DNA from: Candidatus Zambryskiibacteriota bacterium
GTDB taxonomy: Bacteria > Patescibacteriota > Minisyncoccia > Phycocordibacterales > WO2-35-19
NCBI GenBank assembly: GCA_043799105.1
Contig: JAZDOB010000031.1
Location: 1-44,903, forward strand
Length of the DNA stretch: 44,903 bases
Direction of reading: 5' to 3'
The translations under genes were made by a program, and so were the position numbers. This document shows positions 6,855 to 40,546 of this stretch, piece after piece (position 1 is the first letter of the stretch; every line of letters begins with the position of its first letter). A model generated the notes under the pieces. That model did no database searches. It was not told the DNA's origin and worked only from the letters and a program-made list of their open reading frames with translations.

Positions 6855-7279
6855 AACACGCCCAGAAGAGTTTTTTCTATTGCAATATCAAGTTCATCAC
6901 CCCCCATACGGGAGTAGTGATATATTCCTACAAGTTTAGTATAAAATTTTTTAAGGTCTTCTCCCTGCCAATTTTTAATGTCTCTTTTTGATTTGTCGTA
7001 TGGATAGTCTTTCAATATGCCCAGATCTTCTTTGCCGGCCCCCATTGATATGGCTACCATATCTCTTACTTTGGAAATAATTTTATAAACCAGATCCTCG
7101 GCTTCTATACCGCTAAATCTCAGTTTTTCATATTCCAGCCACATTTTTTTTACATTTTTTTCCCCTATTGCGTCTTGCAAGGCAAACGGGCTAAAGCCAA
7201 AAATTCTCCCCTTTGGTTTGGTTTCTTTTGCTTCTTCCATCATTTCCTCGCATTCTCCAAACAAATTTTTATTTTTCAT
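6851..7279 (-). CDS. hypothetical protein (weak resemblance to DNA pol III delta C-terminal domain)
   Basis: 142-aa ORF in the polA operon direction. The helical C-terminal part resembles HolA by eye only. Confidence 0.4.
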   Translation of the reverse strand: MKNKNLFGECEEMMEEAKETKPKGRIFGFSPFALQDAIGEKNVKKMWLEYEKLRFSGIEAEDLVYKIISKVRDMVAISMGAGKEDLGILKDYPYDKSKRDIKNWQGEDLKKFYTKLVGIYHYSRMGGDELDIAIEKTLLGVF

Positions 7280-11921: not shown

Positions 11922-12362
11922 TTATAAACTGTTTATGCTTATTTTCCTCTCCGTTTCAGAAACATGTTCAAATTTTATCACAATATGCTTTGGCAAGATT
12001 TTGGCAATGCGTTCCGGCCATTCTATGCAAATCAAATTTTTAGGGTCGGCAATAATTTCATTCCAACCCAGATTCAACATCTCTTCTTCTTTTTCTATCC
12101 TGTACGCATCTATATGTATAAGTTTATCAAAGGAGAGGTTGGGGGTGAGGTCATATATTTTCTCAATAACAAAAGTGGGGCTTTTGATTGTTTCTTTAAT
12201 TCCAAAATTTTCAGCCAAATATTTCATAAAAGTAGTCTTGCCACTTCCCAACTCTCCATACAATCCTACAATAGTCGCCACTTTTTCGTTGGATTTGAGG
12301 TTATTGGCAAAACCGGTGGCTATTTCGGCTGTTTCTGCCACACTTTTAGATAAAAACTCCAT
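11922..12362 (-). CDS. tsaE: tRNA t6A37 biosynthesis ATPase TsaE
   Basis: GELGSGKTTF P-loop, SPTFVI, HIDAYRI and IEWPE motifs are typical of TsaE/YjeE. Confidence 0.85.
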   Translation of the reverse strand: MEFLSKSVAETAEIATGFANNLKSNEKVATIVGLYGELGSGKTTFMKYLAENFGIKETIKSPTFVIEKIYDLTPNLSFDKLIHIDAYRIEKEEEMLNLGWNEIIADPKNLICIEWPERIAKILPKHIVIKFEHVSETERKISINSL

Positions 12363-12440
12363 CCTGTTAGAAATAGGAAATATTATTTCCGTAGTTAATT
12401 TTAATATACCAGAATCTCGTTAGTATATTTCTAACGGGAT
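12361..12440 (-). repeat. TIR element copy A (80 bp)
   Basis: atcctgttagaaat (12361-12374) and atttctaacgggat (12427-12440) are inverted repeats. The left end shares its AT with the tsaE start codon. The 3' end in gene sense (ATTTCCTATTTCTAACAGGATG) resembles that of the GIY-YIG copy. Confidence 0.75.
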
Positions 12441-12502
12441 CCATACACTGATATTAGCACCCCACTTCGCTTCTCGCTACGCTCAAGCTACGCGGGACAA
12501 GT

Positions 12503-16212: not shown

Positions 16213-16237
16213 CAATCCCGCAAGGAAAAGATAAAAA

Positions 16238-16368
16238 ACTTTCGGGAACAGAAGAGGAATTGATTGTTGGAATTCCACCTGTTCGACGGATTGGCGTTGT
16301 TTGTGTTCATCCTGAGCTTGTCACCATCATAGTTGAGGTTGAACACGTTCGGGTTGCCGTCGCGGTCT
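16238..16368 (-). repeat. DGR template repeat (TR)
   Basis: 131-bp gap-free match to 16690-16820. All ~21 differences are A (on the - strand) in this copy. Confidence 0.85.
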
Positions 16369-16684
16369 ATTTGTATACGACGCCGTCTATTACACCGTTC
16401 TCCTCTTGTGGTTACTCAATGAGCAAAAACTTGAGTTTAATTTTATGCGTGATCTTAAATCACGGGGCATCGTATACCAAGTATTTTCTTTTTTGAACAC
16501 ATTGCACACTACTCCATAAAAAGCCGTGGCCGTTTATGATCTGAATGAGCAAATGTTAGAAAGGTTGTGGAAAGCCGTAACCGTCCAACATGACCAAACC
16601 AAAATAATTATAGCAAAAAATCAAAGTATCAAAATCTCAAAGAATCCAAACTAGACTTAAAAAAGAAATTAAGGGTCAAAACAT

Positions 16685-18493
16685 CTAAGACTTGCGGGAA
16701 CAGAAGAGGAATGGATCGTGGGAATTCCACCTGCACGACGGAGCGGCGTCGCCTGTGCTCATCCTGAGCCAGTCACCAACACAGCGGAGGTGGAACACGT
16801 CCGGGTAGCCGTCGCGGTCTGAGATCTGCTTCATAGCGATAAACATCCACCCTGTTTCTGAATATGAAAGACGAAGTTGTGGACCAACCTCGGCAGGACA
16901 GAGTTCCAAACCAAAATCTTCCGCTCTTTTGTATATTTCATCTGTGGTGGCTCCGTTTGGAAAACCCAGATCTTTTACAGTTAGTCTGACGAGGTTTAGG
17001 TCTTCTTGGGTTTCCGATGTTTTGAAGTCTTGGCTGTTTAAAAGATCTTTTGCGTAATCTGAAATATATATGTTTTTTTCTTTCAGTTTTCTTATCAACT
17101 CTTCTTTTGTTTTGTTTCCGATTTGAGTCTCGTATCTTTGTATTTTGCCCTCAGGAAAAGAAGTGAAAATGTTTTCTATATTTGTTTTAAATACTCCGGG
17201 GAAAAGCTCGCCGATATATGCTTTGGTGTTTTGAGTTATTTCGCTTTCACTTGTAGCAATTTCTTCCGGTTTGCAATCTAGAACAACGGGCGCGTCTTCT
17301 TTGGAGTTTCTTTGGTCTCTAATTTCTTGAATCCTAGGGTCATTTTCATACCCAAATCCTTCAATTTTTTCGTTGATTTCGTAGAGGAAAACCAGTTCTT
17401 CTTTGGTCAGCGGTTGGTTTGTCTTTGTCTTGTTTTCAATCTCTGTCATTTTTTTCATGTCTTCGGTTTTCTTTTTGTACGAATCCGCTTCGGAACCGAA
17501 TTCTTTGAGCTTCTCCTCCAAAACTGGAGCCATGACAGGTTCCATTTCCTGATGCTGGAGGATGCCCCTCACTTGACCGATTTGAGAGCTGGTCATTTGG
17601 ATAGCGATTCTCGGCTGGGTTGGCTCGTTGTTTGCATCGTAAGTGTAATACACATAGAAGTCACCTCGATTTATGTAATTTCTCGCTGTCGTTTGTCCTT
17701 CAATGCACCAACCGGTGCCTTTGGTTTGCATTGAATCAAAAAGCTTGTCGGCTTCTTTTTGGTTGCCCTGATTGTATTTAACCCATTCTCCTCTCACCTC
17801 TTCCTGATTTTCAATCTGGTGAGCTAGAGATTCAGAAATGAGTCCGGCGTAGAGTTTGGGAAATGATTTTGAAAACTGTTCCTTTATTTCCGCCTCAGAT
17901 TTTTTGTTCTTTACCGATTCTTCGTAAATGTCCAGTATTTTTGCAAGAGGAGCACGGTATATATCGGGGTACGGAGCAGTGGTTGTGGCTGTTCTGTCTT
18001 TGAACTTGCCAAGGGTTTTGTCAAATTGGGAAAGCTTGGTGATATTTCTGAATACAAAATATTTAAACCATGTGGGGTATGCGGCGTCATCCGATGTCAG
18101 ATATTCTACCCATTGGTCCAGAGAATGCTTTTGGTCTTTGACGATGGTTTCTATCATCTGCTCTCTGGCTTCTTCCGGAATTTCTTCTACGGTTTGGCCC
18201 CTTTCCCTGGCTATCTGCTTTTGCAAATCAAAATATGACTCCGGTACTTCTTCGGGTTTGATGATGAGAGCGTCGTAAATTTTATCCTTGACCATTTCCA
18301 GATTTCTTTCCCTGACTCTTTGGTCTTGATTGAGAAAGATTTTCTCCAGACGGTCCATGTACGCTTCTATCCTTTCGTTGGGGTTGTTTGGAATGTCTGT
18401 ATCTTCCAGCCGCTCCTTCTTTTCCACCGCTTTACTAACCTCCTCAGATTTCTGAAGCTCGGGGATTTTTAAGTGGAGAGGATGTTTTTCCAT
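16685..18493 (-). CDS. DGR target protein (variable C-terminus)
   Basis: 602-aa ORF whose last ~43 codons are the VR. No signal peptide or TM helix seen. The N-terminal 500 aa are not recognised. Confidence 0.75.
   Translation of the reverse strand: MEKHPLHLKIPELQKSEEVSKAVEKKERLEDTDIPNNPNERIEAYMDRLEKIFLNQDQRVRERNLEMVKDKIYDALIIKPEEVPESYFDLQKQIARERGQTVEEIPEEAREQMIETIVKDQKHSLDQWVEYLTSDDAAYPTWFKYFVFRNITKLSQFDKTLGKFKDRTATTTAPYPDIYRAPLAKILDIYEESVKNKKSEAEIKEQFSKSFPKLYAGLISESLAHQIENQEEVRGEWVKYNQGNQKEADKLFDSMQTKGTGWCIEGQTTARNYINRGDFYVYYTYDANNEPTQPRIAIQMTSSQIGQVRGILQHQEMEPVMAPVLEEKLKEFGSEADSYKKKTEDMKKMTEIENKTKTNQPLTKEELVFLYEINEKIEGFGYENDPRIQEIRDQRNSKEDAPVVLDCKPEEIATSESEITQNTKAYIGELFPGVFKTNIENIFTSFPEGKIQRYETQIGNKTKEELIRKLKEKNIYISDYAKDLLNSQDFKTSETQEDLNLVRLTVKDLGFPNGATTDEIYKRAEDFGLELCPAEVGPQLRLSYSETGWMFIAMKQISDRDGYPDVFHLRCVGDWLRMSTGDAAPSCRWNSHDPFLFCSRKS
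16690..16820 (-). repeat. DGR variable repeat (VR)
   Basis: See TR. It occupies the 3' end of ORF 16685..18493 and ends 2 codons before the stop. Confidence 0.85.
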
Positions 18494-29621: not shown

Positions 29622-30863
29622 TTACTCTGCTATTCGGAGCATCCACAAATAGCCATCTATTTTATTACGGAAAATGAGATGGGTTTCGTCGGGAGGGGCA
29701 CTCATATCAACAACATCAATCTTTTGGTCAGACAAGGAGGAGAGATCGGCTATATTGCTGAATATGTTATTATTCAAATCTATTTTTTCTATAAAATCTT
29801 CGGTTGAAACCAATCCTTTGTACCAAATATCGGGGTAATTGCCGTTTGGTATTTGGTTTGGCACGGCGCAATAAACGGAAAGAATCTTCTCTTTGAGCCA
29901 GACGCACTTCTCTGCCAAACTGTTCACGTTTAATTCTTTCAGAGTAACTTTTTTGTTATCAACCAGATATAATTGAGGATAAGCTCCGCCACTTGAAACT
30001 ATACTCAGAGACCCGTCTGGGTTTGGATTTGTGGAAATGCCGGACATGCCCACTCCTGTTTTTTTCAAAACCTTGCTTGATACATCAAAAGAATAATTGT
30101 ATCCGGTATCCACCGAACTTCCTTTGGTTTGCATAATCACTGTGTTTCCGGAAATCCATTTTGGCAACCATTCCGTAAGTGGATGTGTCATTACAGCAAC
30201 GGATCCTGTGCCGTCAGGATTAGCTGTAAACCATTTTGATGACCCGTTTGCTGTGTAGTAGAAAATTTTGGAACCGTCCGGCTTGATGGAGATTTCTTTT
30301 ATTCCTGTCGGCAACTTTCCTATCGTGGTGTTAAACGGAGTTAAACTTTCACTGGTGGTGCTGGCCTTGTTTTTATTTAATTTTACAAAACTGGTTTCTA
30401 TAATTTCACTTCCCGATTCCAAAGTCTGAGCCAGGAAACCACTGCCGTTTGGCAACCAAAAAGCCCTTATTATTTTGGGTATGGTGGTGTTGGTAAGTCT
30501 TTGGATGGCCAAAGAATCAGAAACGGCCTCATAAACGTTGCCTGTTCCTTTTTCTACAAATCTGACTACGCTTGTGGTGCCTACATTGAAAATCACGGCT
30601 CCGGCTACCGGCTCACTTGATAATCTTCGGAGTCTTGGTATTGGTTGGTCTGTCGGAATGATTGTTGGAGTTTCTTCCCCCGTGCCGGTTTCGTCGGTCG
30701 GTGTCTCTGTGCCGGTGTTGTCAGATCCAAATGGCAGGTAATCTCTTATGGAAAATCCCACTCTGCTTTCTCCCGGTGTTTGGGGTTGAGAACCAAAAAT
30801 CAAAAACAGAGCTACGCCCACAATCACCAGTATTCCTATTATTAATAGTATTTTTTTGGTCAT
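29622..30863 (-). CDS. membrane-anchored exported protein with PD40/TolB-like beta-propeller-type repeats
   Basis: N-terminal TM (ILLIIGILVIVGVALFLIF). Recurring (K/N)PDGS...motifs. The start codon is fused to TIR element B. Confidence 0.55.
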   Translation of the reverse strand: MTKKILLIIGILVIVGVALFLIFGSQPQTPGESRVGFSIRDYLPFGSDNTGTETPTDETGTGEETPTIIPTDQPIPRLRRLSSEPVAGAVIFNVGTTSVVRFVEKGTGNVYEAVSDSLAIQRLTNTTIPKIIRAFWLPNGSGFLAQTLESGSEIIETSFVKLNKNKASTTSESLTPFNTTIGKLPTGIKEISIKPDGSKIFYYTANGSSKWFTANPDGTGSVAVMTHPLTEWLPKWISGNTVIMQTKGSSVDTGYNYSFDVSSKVLKKTGVGMSGISTNPNPDGSLSIVSSGGAYPQLYLVDNKKVTLKELNVNSLAEKCVWLKEKILSVYCAVPNQIPNGNYPDIWYKGLVSTEDFIEKIDLNNNIFSNIADLSSLSDQKIDVVDMSAPPDETHLIFRNKIDGYLWMLRIAE

Positions 30864-30969
30864 CCCGTTAGAAATAGAAGATTACACACTCTCGTGCGCT
30901 CTCTTCTATTTTATTTAATCTGTTAATTGTGTTTATCATAATTTTAATCTTCGTGATTTCTAACGGGAT
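30862..30969 (-). repeat. TIR element copy B (108 bp, type 1)
   Basis: atcccgttagaaat (30862-30875) / atttctaacgggat (30956-30969). Its reverse complement matches copy D at 103/108 positions by my alignment. Confidence 0.85.
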
Positions 30970-30973
30970 CATA

Positions 30974-31861
30974 TTATTTAAATACGGTATGCCAGTGGGG
31001 CCCGGAAGATCCGGGAGTATTGGCGCTTTCATATACGAAGTTCACTTTTATCGTCTGCCCGTTTATTAATAGCGTTTTTTGACCGTTATTATCTTTTATA
31101 TATTTATCAAGTTCAGCGGATGGTCTAAGATCTAAGTTGGGTTGGCCGGGGCCATGCGATACGTGCCCCCCTTCTGTACCACCAGTAATTACTAGGCTAC
31201 CTCCGAAATCTTTTTGCAATTGTTCTAATCCACTAATTGCATTGGGCGGCAAACCAACTAGATTTGTACAACCACTTATTCCCCCGCTTATGCATGGGTC
31301 TGCGTTAACGGATATTTTCCCTCCGCTGTCATTCCAAAGTTTGTCTTTTAGCGCTGTATTTTCGGCTACTTGCGTGGCGCTAAGAGAATATCCCGGCAAT
31401 ACACCAGACAATGTTCCCTCTGATCCCGGTGGAGCGTTGGTGGTTGCCTCTTCTATATTCAGATTGAGCTCCAAAAGATTTGGGTTGATGGTGTAAAGAA
31501 TAAGCCAAGCGCCTATAACCAAAACCAAACCGAAGACAGCATTTTTTATCCTATCCTTGCCGGCGCTTTTACCGCTTATGGCGTCAGTTGATATGTATTG
31601 AAAACCGCCGATGACAATCATAAGAACGGCAGACACTGCCGCGATACCAACGGCCAGTTTAAACATTCCCGGCAAGTAATCTTTGAGTTCTGTTTTGGTG
31701 GCTGCTTGCTGGCAATTTTGGTCACTACCTATACAGGGCAATGGGGCCAAGACAGTGTAGCTGTTATCCGGAGTTTGGGCTTGGACAGAGACCTCAAAAG
31801 CAAACAAACTTCCTGTTGCGACCATTCCAATCATCAAAATCATTAAAATTATTCTTTTCAT
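30974..31861 (-). CDS. VirB2/TrbC-like two-TM segment fused to an M15-type (VanY-like) peptidoglycan peptidase domain (tentative)
   Basis: Signal peptide, then a hydrophobic hairpin (LAVGIAAVSAVLMIVIGG...VFGLVLVIGAWLILY). The C-terminal GHVSHGPGQPNLDL and GPHWH resemble the SxHxxGxAxD and HxH zinc ligands of M15 peptidases. Confidence 0.45.
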   Translation of the reverse strand: MKRIILMILMIGMVATGSLFAFEVSVQAQTPDNSYTVLAPLPCIGSDQNCQQAATKTELKDYLPGMFKLAVGIAAVSAVLMIVIGGFQYISTDAISGKSAGKDRIKNAVFGLVLVIGAWLILYTINPNLLELNLNIEEATTNAPPGSEGTLSGVLPGYSLSATQVAENTALKDKLWNDSGGKISVNADPCISGGISGCTNLVGLPPNAISGLEQLQKDFGGSLVITGGTEGGHVSHGPGQPNLDLRPSAELDKYIKDNNGQKTLLINGQTIKVNFVYESANTPGSSGPHWHTVFK

Positions 31862-31864
31862 TTT

Positions 31865-31945
31865 ATCCCGTTAGAAATTTATCTTGTAAGTGTTTGTTGA
31901 TTATTTTTAAGTATAGCGAGTATTTCATAGTATTTCTAACGGGAT
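31865..31945 (-). repeat. TIR element copy C (81 bp, type 2)
   Basis: atcccgttagaaat (31865-31878) / atttctaacgggat (31932-31945). The right end abuts the stop of ORF 31946..32959; the left end is 3 nt from ATG 31861. Its reverse complement is related to copy E. Confidence 0.85.
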
Positions 31946-33020: not shown

Positions 33021-33031
33021 TGAATATATGA

Positions 33032-33139
33032 ATCCCGTTAGAAATCACGAAGATTAAAATCATGACAAACACAATTAGCAGATTAAATAAAATAGAAGAA
33101 AGCGCACTAGAGTGTGTAATCTTCTATTTCTAACGGGAT
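33032..33139 (+). repeat. TIR element copy D (108 bp, type 1)
   Basis: atcccgttagaaat (33032-33045) / atttctaacgggat (33126-33139). The last AT is the start of ATG 33138. Confidence 0.85.
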
Positions 33140-33413
33140 GAATTTAATGAATTTTGTTTCTCCCGGACTTATTTTTACTGTCCTTGCTCTGCTTGTCGTC
33201 TTTGGGTACTGGATATTCAATTTTATAATTCTTTACCATTTGCTTCGTTTTGGCATTGGTGTCCAGCCCAAAAAATTTGCCGCCGTTTTTCTACTGGGCT
33301 CCATCCTTCTCTTCTCTGTGAACGTTATGTTTTTTGCAAATATTAATTTAGATGATCTAAAAAACTTAAATGAAATCCCGTTAGAAATACCATTATTTAC
33401 TCTTAATGCTTAA
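33138..33413 (+). CDS. small membrane protein
   Basis: 91 aa with two hydrophobic helices. The last 13 codons and the stop lie inside TIR copy E. Confidence 0.5.
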   Translation: MNLMNFVSPGLIFTVLALLVVFGYWIFNFIILYHLLRFGIGVQPKKFAAVFLLGSILLFSVNVMFFANINLDDLKNLNEIPLEIPLFTLNA

Positions 33414-33454
33414 ATTAATCAACAAATATTTAATACTTAAATTTCTAACGGGAT
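33375..33454 (+). repeat. TIR element copy E (80 bp, type 2)
   Basis: atcccgttagaaat (33375-33388) / atttctaacgggat (33441-33454). The last AT is the start of ATG 33453. Confidence 0.85.
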
Positions 33455-34001
33455 GAAATCGTTCCTATCAATTTTTACAGCATCAAGTAATTCCTTTGAG
33501 GGCGAGGAAAATGGAGAAAAAGTCGTTTTACTTCTTCGCCGCCACCCCTTTTTTATTCTTGTCCGCATGTTCCTTTTCTTGTTTTTAGCTTTAATACCGA
33601 TAGCCGTTGGCATCGTGTTCCCCCTTTTCCTTTACTCACACAACCTTCTGGCCGCATTCCTTTTTCTTTCCGGTGTCTGGTATGTTTTTATATGGTCAAG
33701 CATTTTTTATGCTCTCACTATGTATACTCTGGACGTTTGGATCGTCACAGATCGCAGGATTATAGACAGCACGCAGAACGGATTTTTCAATCGGACAATT
33801 TCCGAGTTGCATTTAACCAGAATTCAGGATATTTCCGTCCAAACCAAGGGTGTTATTCAAACATTTTTCAAATTTGGCGATTTGCAGATACAAACCGCCG
33901 GCGCCGAAGAAAAATTTAAGTTCTCCCAGATTCCTCATCCGGTAAAAGTAAAGGACGAAATAATGAAATTAGCTTCTGCTCACTCGTCTCCCCATTTATA
34001 A
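33453..34001 (+). CDS. membrane protein with bacterial PH (YdbT/DUF304-like) domain
   Basis: Two TM helices, then WIVTDRRIIDSTQNGFFNRTISELHLTRIQDISVQTKGVIQTFFKFGDLQIQTAG, typical of bPH_2 domains. Confidence 0.6.
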   Translation: MKSFLSIFTASSNSFEGEENGEKVVLLLRRHPFFILVRMFLFLFLALIPIAVGIVFPLFLYSHNLLAAFLFLSGVWYVFIWSSIFYALTMYTLDVWIVTDRRIIDSTQNGFFNRTISELHLTRIQDISVQTKGVIQTFFKFGDLQIQTAGAEEKFKFSQIPHPVKVKDEIMKLASAHSSPHL

Positions 34002-38042: not shown

Positions 38043-40289
38043 CTACGGGTTAGTTGGGGGCGTCCCTCCTCCGGCCGGTTGTACCGAGGGTGTTGGTGAA
38101 GGGGCAGAAGCTGTTTCGGAAGTTTTCTCTTTTTCGTCTATTTCTTTTTGACTTTCTCTTGCTAAGTCGGCTATTTTTTCTGCCTTGGATTTTTCCCTAG
38201 CTTGCTCTCTGATTCCTCTTGCTGCGGCCTTATAGCCCTGTTTTGGTTGGAAAGGACCAAGCCATCTCGTTCCAAATAGTCCTTTGTCGAGTCTTTCCGC
38301 GTAAGCTCTTTGTCTATCACCACCCGCTTTATTGATTGCTTGTGTCTCTAGAGAATACTCGTCATCGTCAATATCTTTTTTATTCAATTTCTTCTTTGTC
38401 TCAGTTGCCACCCCCCTCTTTTCGTCAGCAACATCTTTTAATCCTTTATAAGCATTATCGTTTTCTTCTATTTCCTTTTCGGCCTCCTTTCTCATCTCTC
38501 TTTCGTTTGCCATTTTTGAAGTTATAGCCTCAAGTTCTTTGTCTATAGTTTCGACACTGGCTTTATCACCCGCTTCTTTGGCCTTTCTTAGTTCCTCTTC
38601 TTTGGCTCTCTTCTCGTTGTTTAATTCGCTCGATCGTTGCGCGTGTGGTTTTAGTTTTTCGTCCATATATTTCTTCCTCTCTTTTTCTGCTTTTTCTGCT
38701 TCCGCTCTTGCATTGGCTTCTTTTGCGGCTCTATCTGCTCTGATGCCCACCCCCTCTCTCTTCTTTCTATTTTCAAACTCTTCCTTCTCCGCACCCGTTT
38801 GTCCATAAACATCTTTGGCATACGCCGCTTTTGCTTTGGCTTTTTCGTCAACAGATTTTTGGAATCCTCCTTTGCCGGTTGCTTTTCCTGCAATGCCCAT
38901 CACTTTCTCGGCTCCAACGGCCTTACCTAATCCTGTGCCAGCTACACCCCTGACATCAAAGCTTCCTTTCTTTCCCTTATCTGCCACCCAAAGTCCAGCT
39001 CTACCGAGGGTAGATTTTGACCACTCTTCTCTTTTCTTTTCAGACACCAAACCAGATACTCTGCCCACGGTATTTCTTGTTGCCCAAGCGGTGCCACCCA
39101 TGGCAACACCACCAATTCCTCCAGAAATAGCCTTAAATGCCCCGCCGGTGGCGCCTTTGGAAGCCATTTGTTTGGAAAGTATAGGAGCGGCGATGGCGAG
39201 ACCAACTATTAGTGTAAAGTTGACAATCAGGGCCATGGCACTCTTCGGATTTGTCGTTATTTGAGAAAAAGTTGCTCCTGCAGGTTTTCCCAACGCTCCA
39301 AGAAGTGAATCGCCTACTTTGAAAACCACCCAAGTGAGGGCAAAATAAAGAGGAGCAAAAAATGATTGGGCAAGCAACGAATCCTTCCAATCCTCAAAGT
39401 GCTTTTTTTGCCCGGGAATAATGAAGGCGATTAAAGCCAGAGGAGAGAGAATCATTAAGAAAATAAGAATAATAAACCGAGCGAGAAACATTATGCCGGC
39501 CATCAAAAGCATAACGGCTGTAATAAGCATAAATACAGAACTCAAAATACCAAAGACCAATATCCCGGGAGCATCCAAATCGCCCGCTCCCAATACGTCA
39601 GTACCATAAAACGTATGCACGCCAAGCATATTTTCGTAACCGGCCGAAATACTCTTAACTTGCGTACCGTCACGTGTAATGGTATTGGAAGATATTGAAT
39701 TATAAAAACCGACAGCCACTATATTTGAGGCGTCAATGACCACTTTTGAAAAAAACAAACTGAAATTTATGAGAAGAGCTACGATGATTATATCTTTTAC
39801 TGTTTTGCCGAAGTTGCCAAAGTTTGTATCAAACATTGCCTTGAATGCGGCGAAGAGAAGAACAAATATAAAACACATATTGGCCACATCCCGTAGTGTT
39901 GCCCACGCTTTGGTGATAGCCCCTCCGACCCCGTTGGGGTCGCCTATATTTGTGGCCATGTTTACTATGCTGAACTCTACTACTTTATCAAATAGCCACC
40001 CGCTAATTCCCATTGTCCAGGACGATATTTTCATTAAAGTTTCAGCAATGCCAGTCGCTAATGCTTTAAATACAAAGTCGCCCGCCTTTTTTAATTGAGC
40101 GTCTGCTGCGACGCCAGCCACTGAAGGATTATTTTGATTTGTTATACAACGAGGAGGAACGGTAATAATATCCCATATACCGCCCGCAGCCCTGCAATCT
40201 GCCTCAGTTGATTGTCCAAACGCGACATAGGGAACTAAAATCCCCGCCAAAACAACAATCAATATTCCGAATGTAAGAAATTTTTTCAT
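38043..40289 (-). CDS. VirB6/TrbL-like polytopic membrane protein with long Lys/Glu/Ala-rich tail
   Basis: Signal peptide, at least 6 hydrophobic helices over aa 130-390, then a ~300-aa charged coiled-coil-like region and a Pro-rich end. Its ATG overlaps the GIY-YIG stop (ATGA). Confidence 0.55.
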   Translation of the reverse strand: MKKFLTFGILIVVLAGILVPYVAFGQSTEADCRAAGGIWDIITVPPRCITNQNNPSVAGVAADAQLKKAGDFVFKALATGIAETLMKISSWTMGISGWLFDKVVEFSIVNMATNIGDPNGVGGAITKAWATLRDVANMCFIFVLLFAAFKAMFDTNFGNFGKTVKDIIIVALLINFSLFFSKVVIDASNIVAVGFYNSISSNTITRDGTQVKSISAGYENMLGVHTFYGTDVLGAGDLDAPGILVFGILSSVFMLITAVMLLMAGIMFLARFIILIFLMILSPLALIAFIIPGQKKHFEDWKDSLLAQSFFAPLYFALTWVVFKVGDSLLGALGKPAGATFSQITTNPKSAMALIVNFTLIVGLAIAAPILSKQMASKGATGGAFKAISGGIGGVAMGGTAWATRNTVGRVSGLVSEKKREEWSKSTLGRAGLWVADKGKKGSFDVRGVAGTGLGKAVGAEKVMGIAGKATGKGGFQKSVDEKAKAKAAYAKDVYGQTGAEKEEFENRKKREGVGIRADRAAKEANARAEAEKAEKERKKYMDEKLKPHAQRSSELNNEKRAKEEELRKAKEAGDKASVETIDKELEAITSKMANEREMRKEAEKEIEENDNAYKGLKDVADEKRGVATETKKKLNKKDIDDDEYSLETQAINKAGGDRQRAYAERLDKGLFGTRWLGPFQPKQGYKAAARGIREQAREKSKAEKIADLARESQKEIDEKEKTSETASAPSPTPSVQPAGGGTPPTNP

Positions 40290-40546
40290 CCCGTTAGAGA
40301 CAGGAAATGTTTCAAACGAGTTTTAAGATATCGTTTGCCCATACCTGATTTTAAATACTTCTCTCTCGACCTCGCATCTCGTTCGTTTAACGAGGCTTCG
40401 TAATATATCAATTCATACGGACTTCGGCTTTTAGTGTAAGTTGATTTACCCTCGTTGTGTTGTTTGAAACGTTTCCGTAGATCAATCGTTGATCCTGTGT
40501 ATAAATAATTATTTTTCATACTTTTAATTACGTAAGTGTAGAACAT
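40286..40546 (-). CDS. small GIY-YIG nuclease-domain protein
   Basis: 86 aa. FYTYVIKS...YLYTGSTIDLRKRFKQHN...YYE...REKYLK matches the GIY-(10)-YTG, R and E/N motifs of the URI/GIY-YIG domain. Confidence 0.8.
   Translation of the reverse strand: MFYTYVIKSMKNNYLYTGSTIDLRKRFKQHNEGKSTYTKSRSPYELIYYEASLNERDARSREKYLKSGMGKRYLKTRLKHFLSLTG

Follow-up and report, generated by a model that had tools for sequence, protein, structure and literature searches.

Copy B, a 104-nt element lying on the start codon of ORF 29622..30863, carries no gene; it derives from a family of very small Patescibacteria mobile elements, whose full-length members measure approximately 275-278 bp and carry a GIY-YIG nuclease as their sole gene. 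In the model that best fits the sequences, elements of this family end in T...A, duplicate TGNN and rebuild the host ATG with their last A, and the nuclease of full-length elements is, judging from the letters, read from the captured original ATG of the host. The same comparison led us to conclude that the frames of short copies descend from this nuclease frame and that selection for an open frame maintains them, at least in the 77-nt family. Hand-back of ribosomes from such frames to the host start is plausible for some families and not universal.

Structure of copy B

The window (i.e., the whole 44,903-nt stretch of DNA analysed) contains the following features at and around copy B.

30863..30968, minus strand: copy B, a gene-less 104-nt type 1 element, with its terminal T (30968) and A (30863) included
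30970..30972, minus strand: original start codon of the host gene, left of the element and 1 nt past the upstream TAA; start of the 34-codon frame
30868..30972, minus strand: 34-codon frame plus stop, translation MIPLEITKIKIMINTINRLNKIEESARECVIFYF, then stop
30937..30939, minus strand: internal ATG at element position 29, which opens the family-conserved 23-codon frame MINTINRLNKIEESARECVIFYF, then stop
30868..30870, minus strand: TAA within the right inverted repeat (mini-ORF stop), 4 nt (CGGG) ahead of the host ATG at 30863-30861

The gene upstream of copy B (30974..31861), which encodes a T4SS-pilin-like protein, ends on the minus strand with TAA at 30976-30974, followed by one T and then by the ATG at 30972-30970. 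In orthologous genes of 8 relatives the site was empty and read TAA-n-ATGAC without an insert, and since these empty sites have the same TAA-n-ATG junction, the left ATG of copy B was identified as the original start of the host gene downstream. The element is bounded by the exact repeat pair CCCGTTAGAAAT / ATTTCTAACGGG, with ATGA-T at its left end and A-TGAC at its right end, i.e., with a 3-bp duplication of TGA, and its terminal A (30863) is the first base of the rebuilt host ATG.

The initial annotation had described a 34-codon frame that begins 1 nt after the upstream TAA, runs through the element and leaves TAA-CGGG-ATG ahead of the host gene, and translation confirmed all of these coordinates. 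The long frame of copy B is atypical. The frame of copy B is a composite of the original host ATG and the family-conserved 23-codon frame from the internal ATG, which is the conserved unit, and the two are in phase because the duplication is 3 bp instead of the usual 4 bp; the same phasing was noted in one copy of another genome (L026/L152). In type 1 elements with the usual 4-bp duplication the old ATG is out of phase, and its frame as a rule spans 9 codons, with a TAA that leaves 4 nt to the internal ATG. A frame that spans the whole element from the upstream ATG was present in only 32 of 121 copies. The TAA at the right repeat is the stop used by all 104-nt type 1 copies.

Other elements in the window

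12360..12444, minus strand: copy A, 76 nt, ahead of tsaE; old ATG 12444-42, 25 codons to TAA 12369-67, CAGG, host ATG 12362-60
31859..31943, minus strand: copy C, 77-nt family; internal ATG 31928-26, 21 codons MKYSLYLKIINKHLQDKFLTG to TAA 31865-63
33028..33140, plus strand: copy D; old ATG 33028-30, 9 codons MNPVRNHED, stop TAA 33055-57
33377..33456, plus strand: copy E, a decayed 76-nt member of the 77-nt family; ATG 33406-08, 16 codons to TGA 33454-56
40286..40566, minus strand: copy F, a 277-nt element with an 86-aa GIY-YIG ORF, ATG 40546-44 to TGA 40288-86

Copy D carries an internal ATG (33062-64) 4 nt past the TAA of its short frame, and this ATG opens 23 codons, MTNTISRLNKIEESALECVIFYF, to TAA 33131-33, which is followed by CGGG and the host ATG at 33138-40. 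As annotated, it differs from copy B at 5 positions, 2 of them synonymous and 3 nonsynonymous in the frame, with the frame open and the internal ATG retained. The geometry given for copy A (25 codons, TAA-CAGG-ATG) was likewise borne out by the letters and the gene behind this copy was identified as TsaE by Pfam; its 25-codon frame, present in 2 of 8 copies, was rejected as a feature of the sub-family. Copy C had been put forward as a counter-example with stops in the frame. It does have an ATG frame of 21 codons, in another phase, and the TAA at 31865-63 stands one base before the host ATG at 31861-59 (TAA-A-ATG).

The ORF of copy F matched the GIY-YIG family (Pfam PF01541, E 1.5e-16), and its TGA at 40288-86, in the context ...CTAACGGGA-TGA, overlaps the host ATG at 40289-87, as had been noted before. 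An overlap of the same kind was found in copy E, between TGA 33454-56 and host ATG 33453-55. Thus, the spacing from stop to start was TAA-CGGG-ATG in copies B and D, TAA-CAGG-ATG in copy A and an ATGA overlap in copies E and F and in the 77-nt family. A 91-aa gene at 33138..33413 enters copy E for 12 codons and ends at TAA 33411-13, its C-terminus being encoded by the element.

Ends, insertion sites and full-length relatives

The source genome (543 kb, 32 contigs, 41% GC) contained 41 elements of 60-277 nt, approximately 35 of which lay exactly on a start codon, with ATGNN-T ahead of the left-hand CCCG and A-TGNN behind the right-hand CGGG. The comparison set joined these 41 copies to 84 taken from 22 related genomes and to another 23 on metagenome contigs, genome copies having been picked solely by the right end plus ATG and metagenome copies solely by the type 1 right end; start-codon counts refer to 121 copies from 23 genomes, or to approximately 140 copies with those from metagenomes included. 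A scan of genome contigs for type 1 ends returned 3 loci, apparently copies already collected, and a scan of metagenomes returned 23 loci, with 8 new type 1 sequences.

The terminal inverted repeats were 12-14 bp long, (T)CCCGTTAGAnnn ... nnnTCTAACGGG(A), with inner positions that co-varied; repeat positions 10-12 were complementary in 128 of 133 unique copies, in 8 variants. Target duplications were 3, 4 or 5 bp and mostly TGNN. One copy with C...G ends (C32:22021) yielded a GTG start, and old GTG or TTG starts at the left had become ATG at the right in relatives (loci L057 and L051), which indicates that the element's terminal bases govern which start codon is rebuilt.

Seven close relatives of the copy F nuclease shared the same repeat ends. 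In full-length elements L098, L099, L101, L102 and L104, the core was 275 or 278 nt, i.e., 2 mod 3 like 77, and the nuclease ORF was open from the flank ATG through the left repeat (MNPVRD..., MSNPVRN...); two full-length relatives contained no other possible nuclease start. The full-length nuclease ORF ends with ...FLSLTG-TGA, which overlaps the rebuilt host ATG. The frame of the 77-nt family, which reads MNPVRNTMKY..L.LK....L...KFLTG-TGA, resembles, on inspection, an in-frame deletion derivative of the nuclease ORF. These elements did not conform to a classical MITE of a known IS family, in that the sole repeat-bounded coding relative carries a GIY-YIG nuclease and no transposase and in that the length of the duplication is variable (3-5 bp).

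Three further properties of the copies were considered. Type 1 and 77-nt copies were uniformly oriented with respect to the host gene, but ORF-less type 2 copies were oriented likewise; orientation is thus set by something other than the ORF and was rejected as evidence for it. Selective retention of the left ATG was also rejected, this codon being mismatched in a few copies, as are the neighbouring duplicated bases (by eye), which makes the comparison uninformative. Element length modulo 3 showed no bias overall among copies.

Conservation of the frames

In 69 of 121 copies (57%) the host start was reached by a frame that opens with ATG and has at least 10 codons, as compared with 33.5 (28%) when element interiors were shuffled and 42 when the body was reverse-complemented in place. 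At the level of clusters, 21 of 42 had a majority frame versus 28% expected (binomial P 0.002). These frames ended as TAA-4nt-ATG (TAA-7), as an ATGA overlap (TGA+1) or in frame with the host gene. No such frame was present in the remaining 52 copies (43%) and in half of the clusters.

For the 77-nt family, 17 unique copies from several genomes were compared (mean interior identity 0.71, minimum 0.49). There were 0 stops in the frame versus 71 and 12 in the other two frames, and the frame was open in 18 of 18 copies. With at least 65 substitution events and approximately 8.5% of random ones stop-creating, this corresponds to P <= 3e-3 independently of any tree; in a star-tree simulation, 7 of 15 copies were expected to be open and the product was approximately 1e-5. 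Entropy by codon position was 0.78/0.78/0.67, i.e., without codon periodicity, and because variability is equal at all three positions it is openness that is kept and not the peptide. The 77-nt family was found on ATGA starts at 18 of 18 sites versus 81 of 115 for the rest (Fisher P 0.003); it needs the TGA of the host as its stop, whereas type 1 elements bring their own TAA and sit on ATGG in 11 of 24 cases. A 76-nt variant of the 77-nt family shifts onto the repeat TAA.

Type 1 elements, to which copies B and D belong, kept the internal ATG and an open 23-codon frame in 20 of 20 unique copies. The significance of this is weak because divergence is low (P 0.01 for a star tree and 0.05-0.17 as a conservative bound). 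Their entropy by codon position was 0.64/0.74/0.57, again without codon periodicity. A 105-nt variant of type 1 shifts to the ATGA stop. In the 110-119-nt family, which comes from another family-level lineage, six diverged copies of five lengths had frames of at least 21 codons to TAA, with a shuffle P of 0.03-0.13 for each copy. The geometry of the frame was kept despite divergence in the 77-nt, type 1, 110-119-nt and 121-nt families.

The opposite result was obtained with the type 2 family (approximately 15 copies of 100-106 nt), which has the architecture of type 1 and the most stable stems and in which no copy contained such a frame. Intact genes behind type 2 copies included the only clear PheRS in an 88%-complete assembly, ClpP, a Dus enzyme and an M16 peptidase, and an ORF-less 61-nt copy was found on a ProRS-like gene. 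Because ORF-less copies sit on intact genes, PheRS among them, a long mini-ORF is not required for tolerance, and the earlier proposal that the mini-ORF explains tolerance at essential starts does not apply in general.

RNA structure and start context

Predicted RNA folds contained the repeat stem in every sub-family folded, with MFE values from -17 to -40 kcal/mol. Stems were 14-22 bp, of which those of type 1 and type 2 consisted of 12 plus 7-8 bp (approximately 20 bp) and those of many sub-families of 14-15 bp. Of the 12 copies folded, copy A had a predicted probability of 0.25 that positions -12 to -1 of the host are unpaired; for each of the other 11 this value was 0.00-0.06. Loop ATGs were largely unpaired in the predicted folds, with a probability of approximately 0.5 for the internal ATG of type 1.

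No Shine-Dalgarno enrichment was seen upstream of 530 crude gene calls in the source genome, where this region is A-rich and G-poor; a ribosome-binding site hidden in the right repeat was rejected for this reason. Genome-wide, positions -11 to -1 were A-rich and G-poor and 48% of crude gene calls started with ATGA. Since the organism shows no Shine-Dalgarno signal, its start sites presumably need open, A-rich RNA. A start-site model trained on 262 well-defined starts gave the following scores.

Reconstructed empty sites: 3.7 bits
Host ATG behind the element: -0.4 bits
Internal ATG of type 1: 6.6 bits, the 99th percentile of all ATGs
In-frame ATG of the 62/66-nt family: 7.5 bits

Since the predicted stem buries the host start and no Shine-Dalgarno signal is seen, melting by a translating ribosome would be a sensible requirement for host expression. 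Agreement with coupling of the unfolding type was predicted, in that the structure occludes the host start and the frame from the old start enters the left arm. Agreement with termination-reinitiation was also noted, in that the upstream frame stops either within the downstream start or no more than a few nt short of it. That the upstream frame may itself be translated is indicated indirectly by stop avoidance and by start context.

Proposed mechanism and alternative explanations

From these models we propose, giving the idea an even chance of being correct, that ribosomes unzip the repeat stem and that those in a frame extending to the right end are passed on to the host AUG. In the transcript, pairing of the two repeats would form a stem of 14-22 bp, within which the 12 nt ahead of the host AUG would be buried. 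Ribosomes would arrive from the upstream gene or from the old ATG, or would load at a loop ATG, unzip the stem and terminate at or beside the host AUG, and the host gene would then be translated via termination-reinitiation and/or RNA unfolding; sub-families that have no long frame would depend solely on the short frame opened by the old ATG to unfold the stem. Reinitiation is known to be efficient at overlaps and at +2 nt and to be largely lost by approximately +38 nt (PMC10666635), and a hairpin before a downstream start can be opened by an upstream ribosome, as in the unfolding model for which phage f1 gene VII/IX is a precedent (PMC12548453). The suggestion of the initial annotation that this geometry lets ribosomes melt the stem and re-initiate is thus retained in part: the geometry recurs, is kept in several sub-families, matches the design of full-length elements and accompanies a predicted stem that buries the start, but the 52 copies without a frame fall outside it. 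The frames could also persist partly through descent from ORF-bearing master copies, and the arms could pair for the benefit of the nuclease, at the level of DNA, instead of in the mRNA.

Much of this evidence can also be read to mean that only unfolding matters, such that any ribosome that reaches the left repeat, whether from the upstream gene or from the old start preserved by the insertion, frees the host AUG, the long mini-ORFs being leftovers of the nuclease with an end point of no relevance. The old start codon was kept in 110 of 121 copies and its frame crossed the entire left arm in 105 of these 110, whatever the sub-family; a co-directional upstream ORF ended no more than 40 nt away or inside the element in approximately 93 of the 121, and the upstream gene ended at the left-repeat TAG in 14. 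ORF-less type 2 copies are tolerated on PheRS and ClpP, and coupling of f1 VII/IX persists while the upstream frame ends within the hairpin (PMC12548453). We regard this as the main rival but nevertheless as unlikely, as it leaves unexplained the lack of in-frame stops in the 77-nt family over at least 65 substitutions, the frameshifted variants that land on an alternative coupling stop, the confinement of the 77-nt family to ATGA starts and the top-1% start context of the internal ATG of type 1. Stop avoidance and the restriction to ATGA are equally unexplained if the stem is instead a site of RNA processing or bridging, where cleavage (e.g., by RNase III) would give a leaderless or short-leader mRNA, or the old leader would be brought beside the new AUG, with no involvement of mini-ORF translation. 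The stems of approximately 20 bp in type 1 and type 2 and the lack of a Shine-Dalgarno signal would suit such processing, but many sub-families have a stem of 14-15 bp only, and we consider this explanation very unlikely.

Chance or neutral decay would account for the frames as remains of the nuclease ORF or as accidents of A-rich sequence, with the host gene translated directly or at a reduced, tolerated level. In keeping with this, the baseline is high (28-35% of shuffled or reversed copies had a frame of at least 10 codons), the frame of copy A is not conserved, the significance for type 1 is weak and codon periodicity is lacking. The stop-avoidance statistics of the 77-nt family, the excess at the level of clusters and the 110-119-nt family, which keeps its frames despite changes in length, argue against it, as do the host upstream region predicted to be fully paired and the missing Shine-Dalgarno signal; altogether, it appears rather improbable. 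That the mini-ORFs encode functional micro-peptides, e.g., a cofactor or inhibitor of the nuclease, is suggested by the conserved residues ...RL... and ...VIFYF in type 1 and ...KFLTG in the 77-nt family. However, these conserved parts coincide with nucleotides of the repeat and second stem that co-vary between arms, interior residues are free to change, the three codon positions do not differ in entropy in either family and frameshifted variants alter the C-terminus. Selection at the peptide level was accordingly rejected, and we give a functional peptide hardly any credence.

An extension of the hand-back proposal, which we put forward tentatively and with the balance somewhat against it, is that the right end has evolved to hand back ribosomes in all three frames, so that every frame that crosses it is delivered to the host start. 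One frame would stop at the TAA 4 nt before the ATG, one at the TGA of ATGA, and one would continue in frame into the host protein. If three-frame hand-back and capture of the host start are both true, a selfish element could sit on essential starts at little cost and host translation would also drive the nuclease of the element, a strategy of mobile DNA that is so far undescribed.

Relation to known systems

Bacterial MITEs and palindromic repeats such as the Correia elements of Neisseria and the palindromic elements of Rickettsia are, like the elements described here, small, bounded by repeats, hairpin-forming, present in multiple copies and tolerated in compact genomes, and those of Rickettsia are read through in frame. 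We know of no report of start-codon targeting, start rebuilding or separate frames that end at host starts for either the Correia or the Rickettsia elements.

Genes translationally coupled at ATGA or TAATG and through RNA unfolding (Huber et al. 2019/2023, PMC6728339, PMC10666635; review PMC12548453; f1 VII/IX and MS2 coat-lysis) show the same overlap or nearness of stop and start and a hairpin around the downstream start that is opened by the upstream ribosome. The present elements differ in that the upstream frame is one of 16-40 codons or a nuclease gene on a mobile element, the hairpin arises from inverted repeats that belong to this element, insertion itself rebuilt the downstream start, and coupling is predicted from sequence.

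Homing endonuclease genes of T4-like phages, whether free-standing or intron-encoded (PMC2988022), are also selfish nuclease genes wedged between host genes. There too, the nuclease start overlaps a host stop (UAAUGA for mobE and nrdA) and RNA hairpins control translation of the nuclease, as in sequestration of the I-TevI RBS. In contrast, coupling in T4 runs from host gene to endonuclease and limits the latter, whereas translation is here proposed to be handed back as well, and the elements described here lie on the start codon, have inverted repeats and target duplications, and include gene-less miniature copies. The Ssn GIY-YIG single-strand nucleases with NTS/SRM hairpin repeats (Chenal et al. 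2025, PMC11893778), as described in the abstract and outline of that report, similarly combine a small GIY-YIG nuclease with hundreds of short hairpin repeats near genes; start-codon insertion, target duplication and a translated frame are not mentioned in that abstract and outline. Bacterial uORFs and leader peptides (iraD uORF, PMC5574718; uRBS study, PMC13285730) resemble the present frames as short upstream frames that set access to a downstream start, but each is a fixed regulatory part of one gene, whereas the frames described here are mobile, present in many copies and located on many unrelated genes. Our search of the literature returned no paper on GIY-YIG elements that insert at start codons or on hand-back by mini-ORFs.

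Hand-back, if real, would explain how these elements colonised dozens of gene starts, including those of tRNA synthetase genes, in a 0.5-Mb genome that has hardly any DNA to spare. It would also represent a natural, portable cassette for translation-neutral insertion and would add a new case of translational coupling among bacteria that make no use of Shine-Dalgarno sequences. For annotation, starts and small ORFs near these repeats in Patescibacteria will be mis-called unless the element is recognised.

Additional observations

Insertion of one element into another was noted at several loci. At contig position C13:14973-15148, outside the window, a 100-nt element with a TGAA duplication lies on the internal ATG of a type 1 element that itself occupies a host start codon, and the outer mini-ORF is intact behind the rebuilt ATG. 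Since another element inserted there, the internal ATG of type 1 evidently looks like a start to the insertion process. At L136 (metagenome contig Ga0105104_10003379, minus strand, approximately 6867-7054), a 77-nt and a 104-nt element share one start codon in a head-to-tail stack, in which the second re-targeted the ATG rebuilt by the first. The short frames thereby form a chain of three, each with its stop either at the following ATG or 4 nt ahead of it. In L102 and L103, likewise, the left flank consists of the right end of another element.

Most type 2 copies contain a conserved ATG-TGA just before the right arm of the second stem, 18 nt ahead of the host ATG, with a poor start context of -1.0 bits (e.g., C30:12394, C26:1940 and C32:24312 in the source genome and loci L024, L025 and L036). 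Members of the 62/66-nt sub-family (genome contigs C8:45713, C30:20628, C2:7826, C14:2993 and C32:22021; loci L014 and L039) carry ATGAAAAC directly ahead of the right repeat, in frame with the host ATG and in a top-1% start context; translation from this ATG would add MKTSNG to the N-terminus of the host protein. In the intergenic copy at C10:10327, an in-frame ATG runs into the next gene, probably by coincidence. Elsewhere in the window, a direct repeat of 143 nt (83% identical) was noted at 16226-16368 and 16678-16820, with its copies 452 nt apart.
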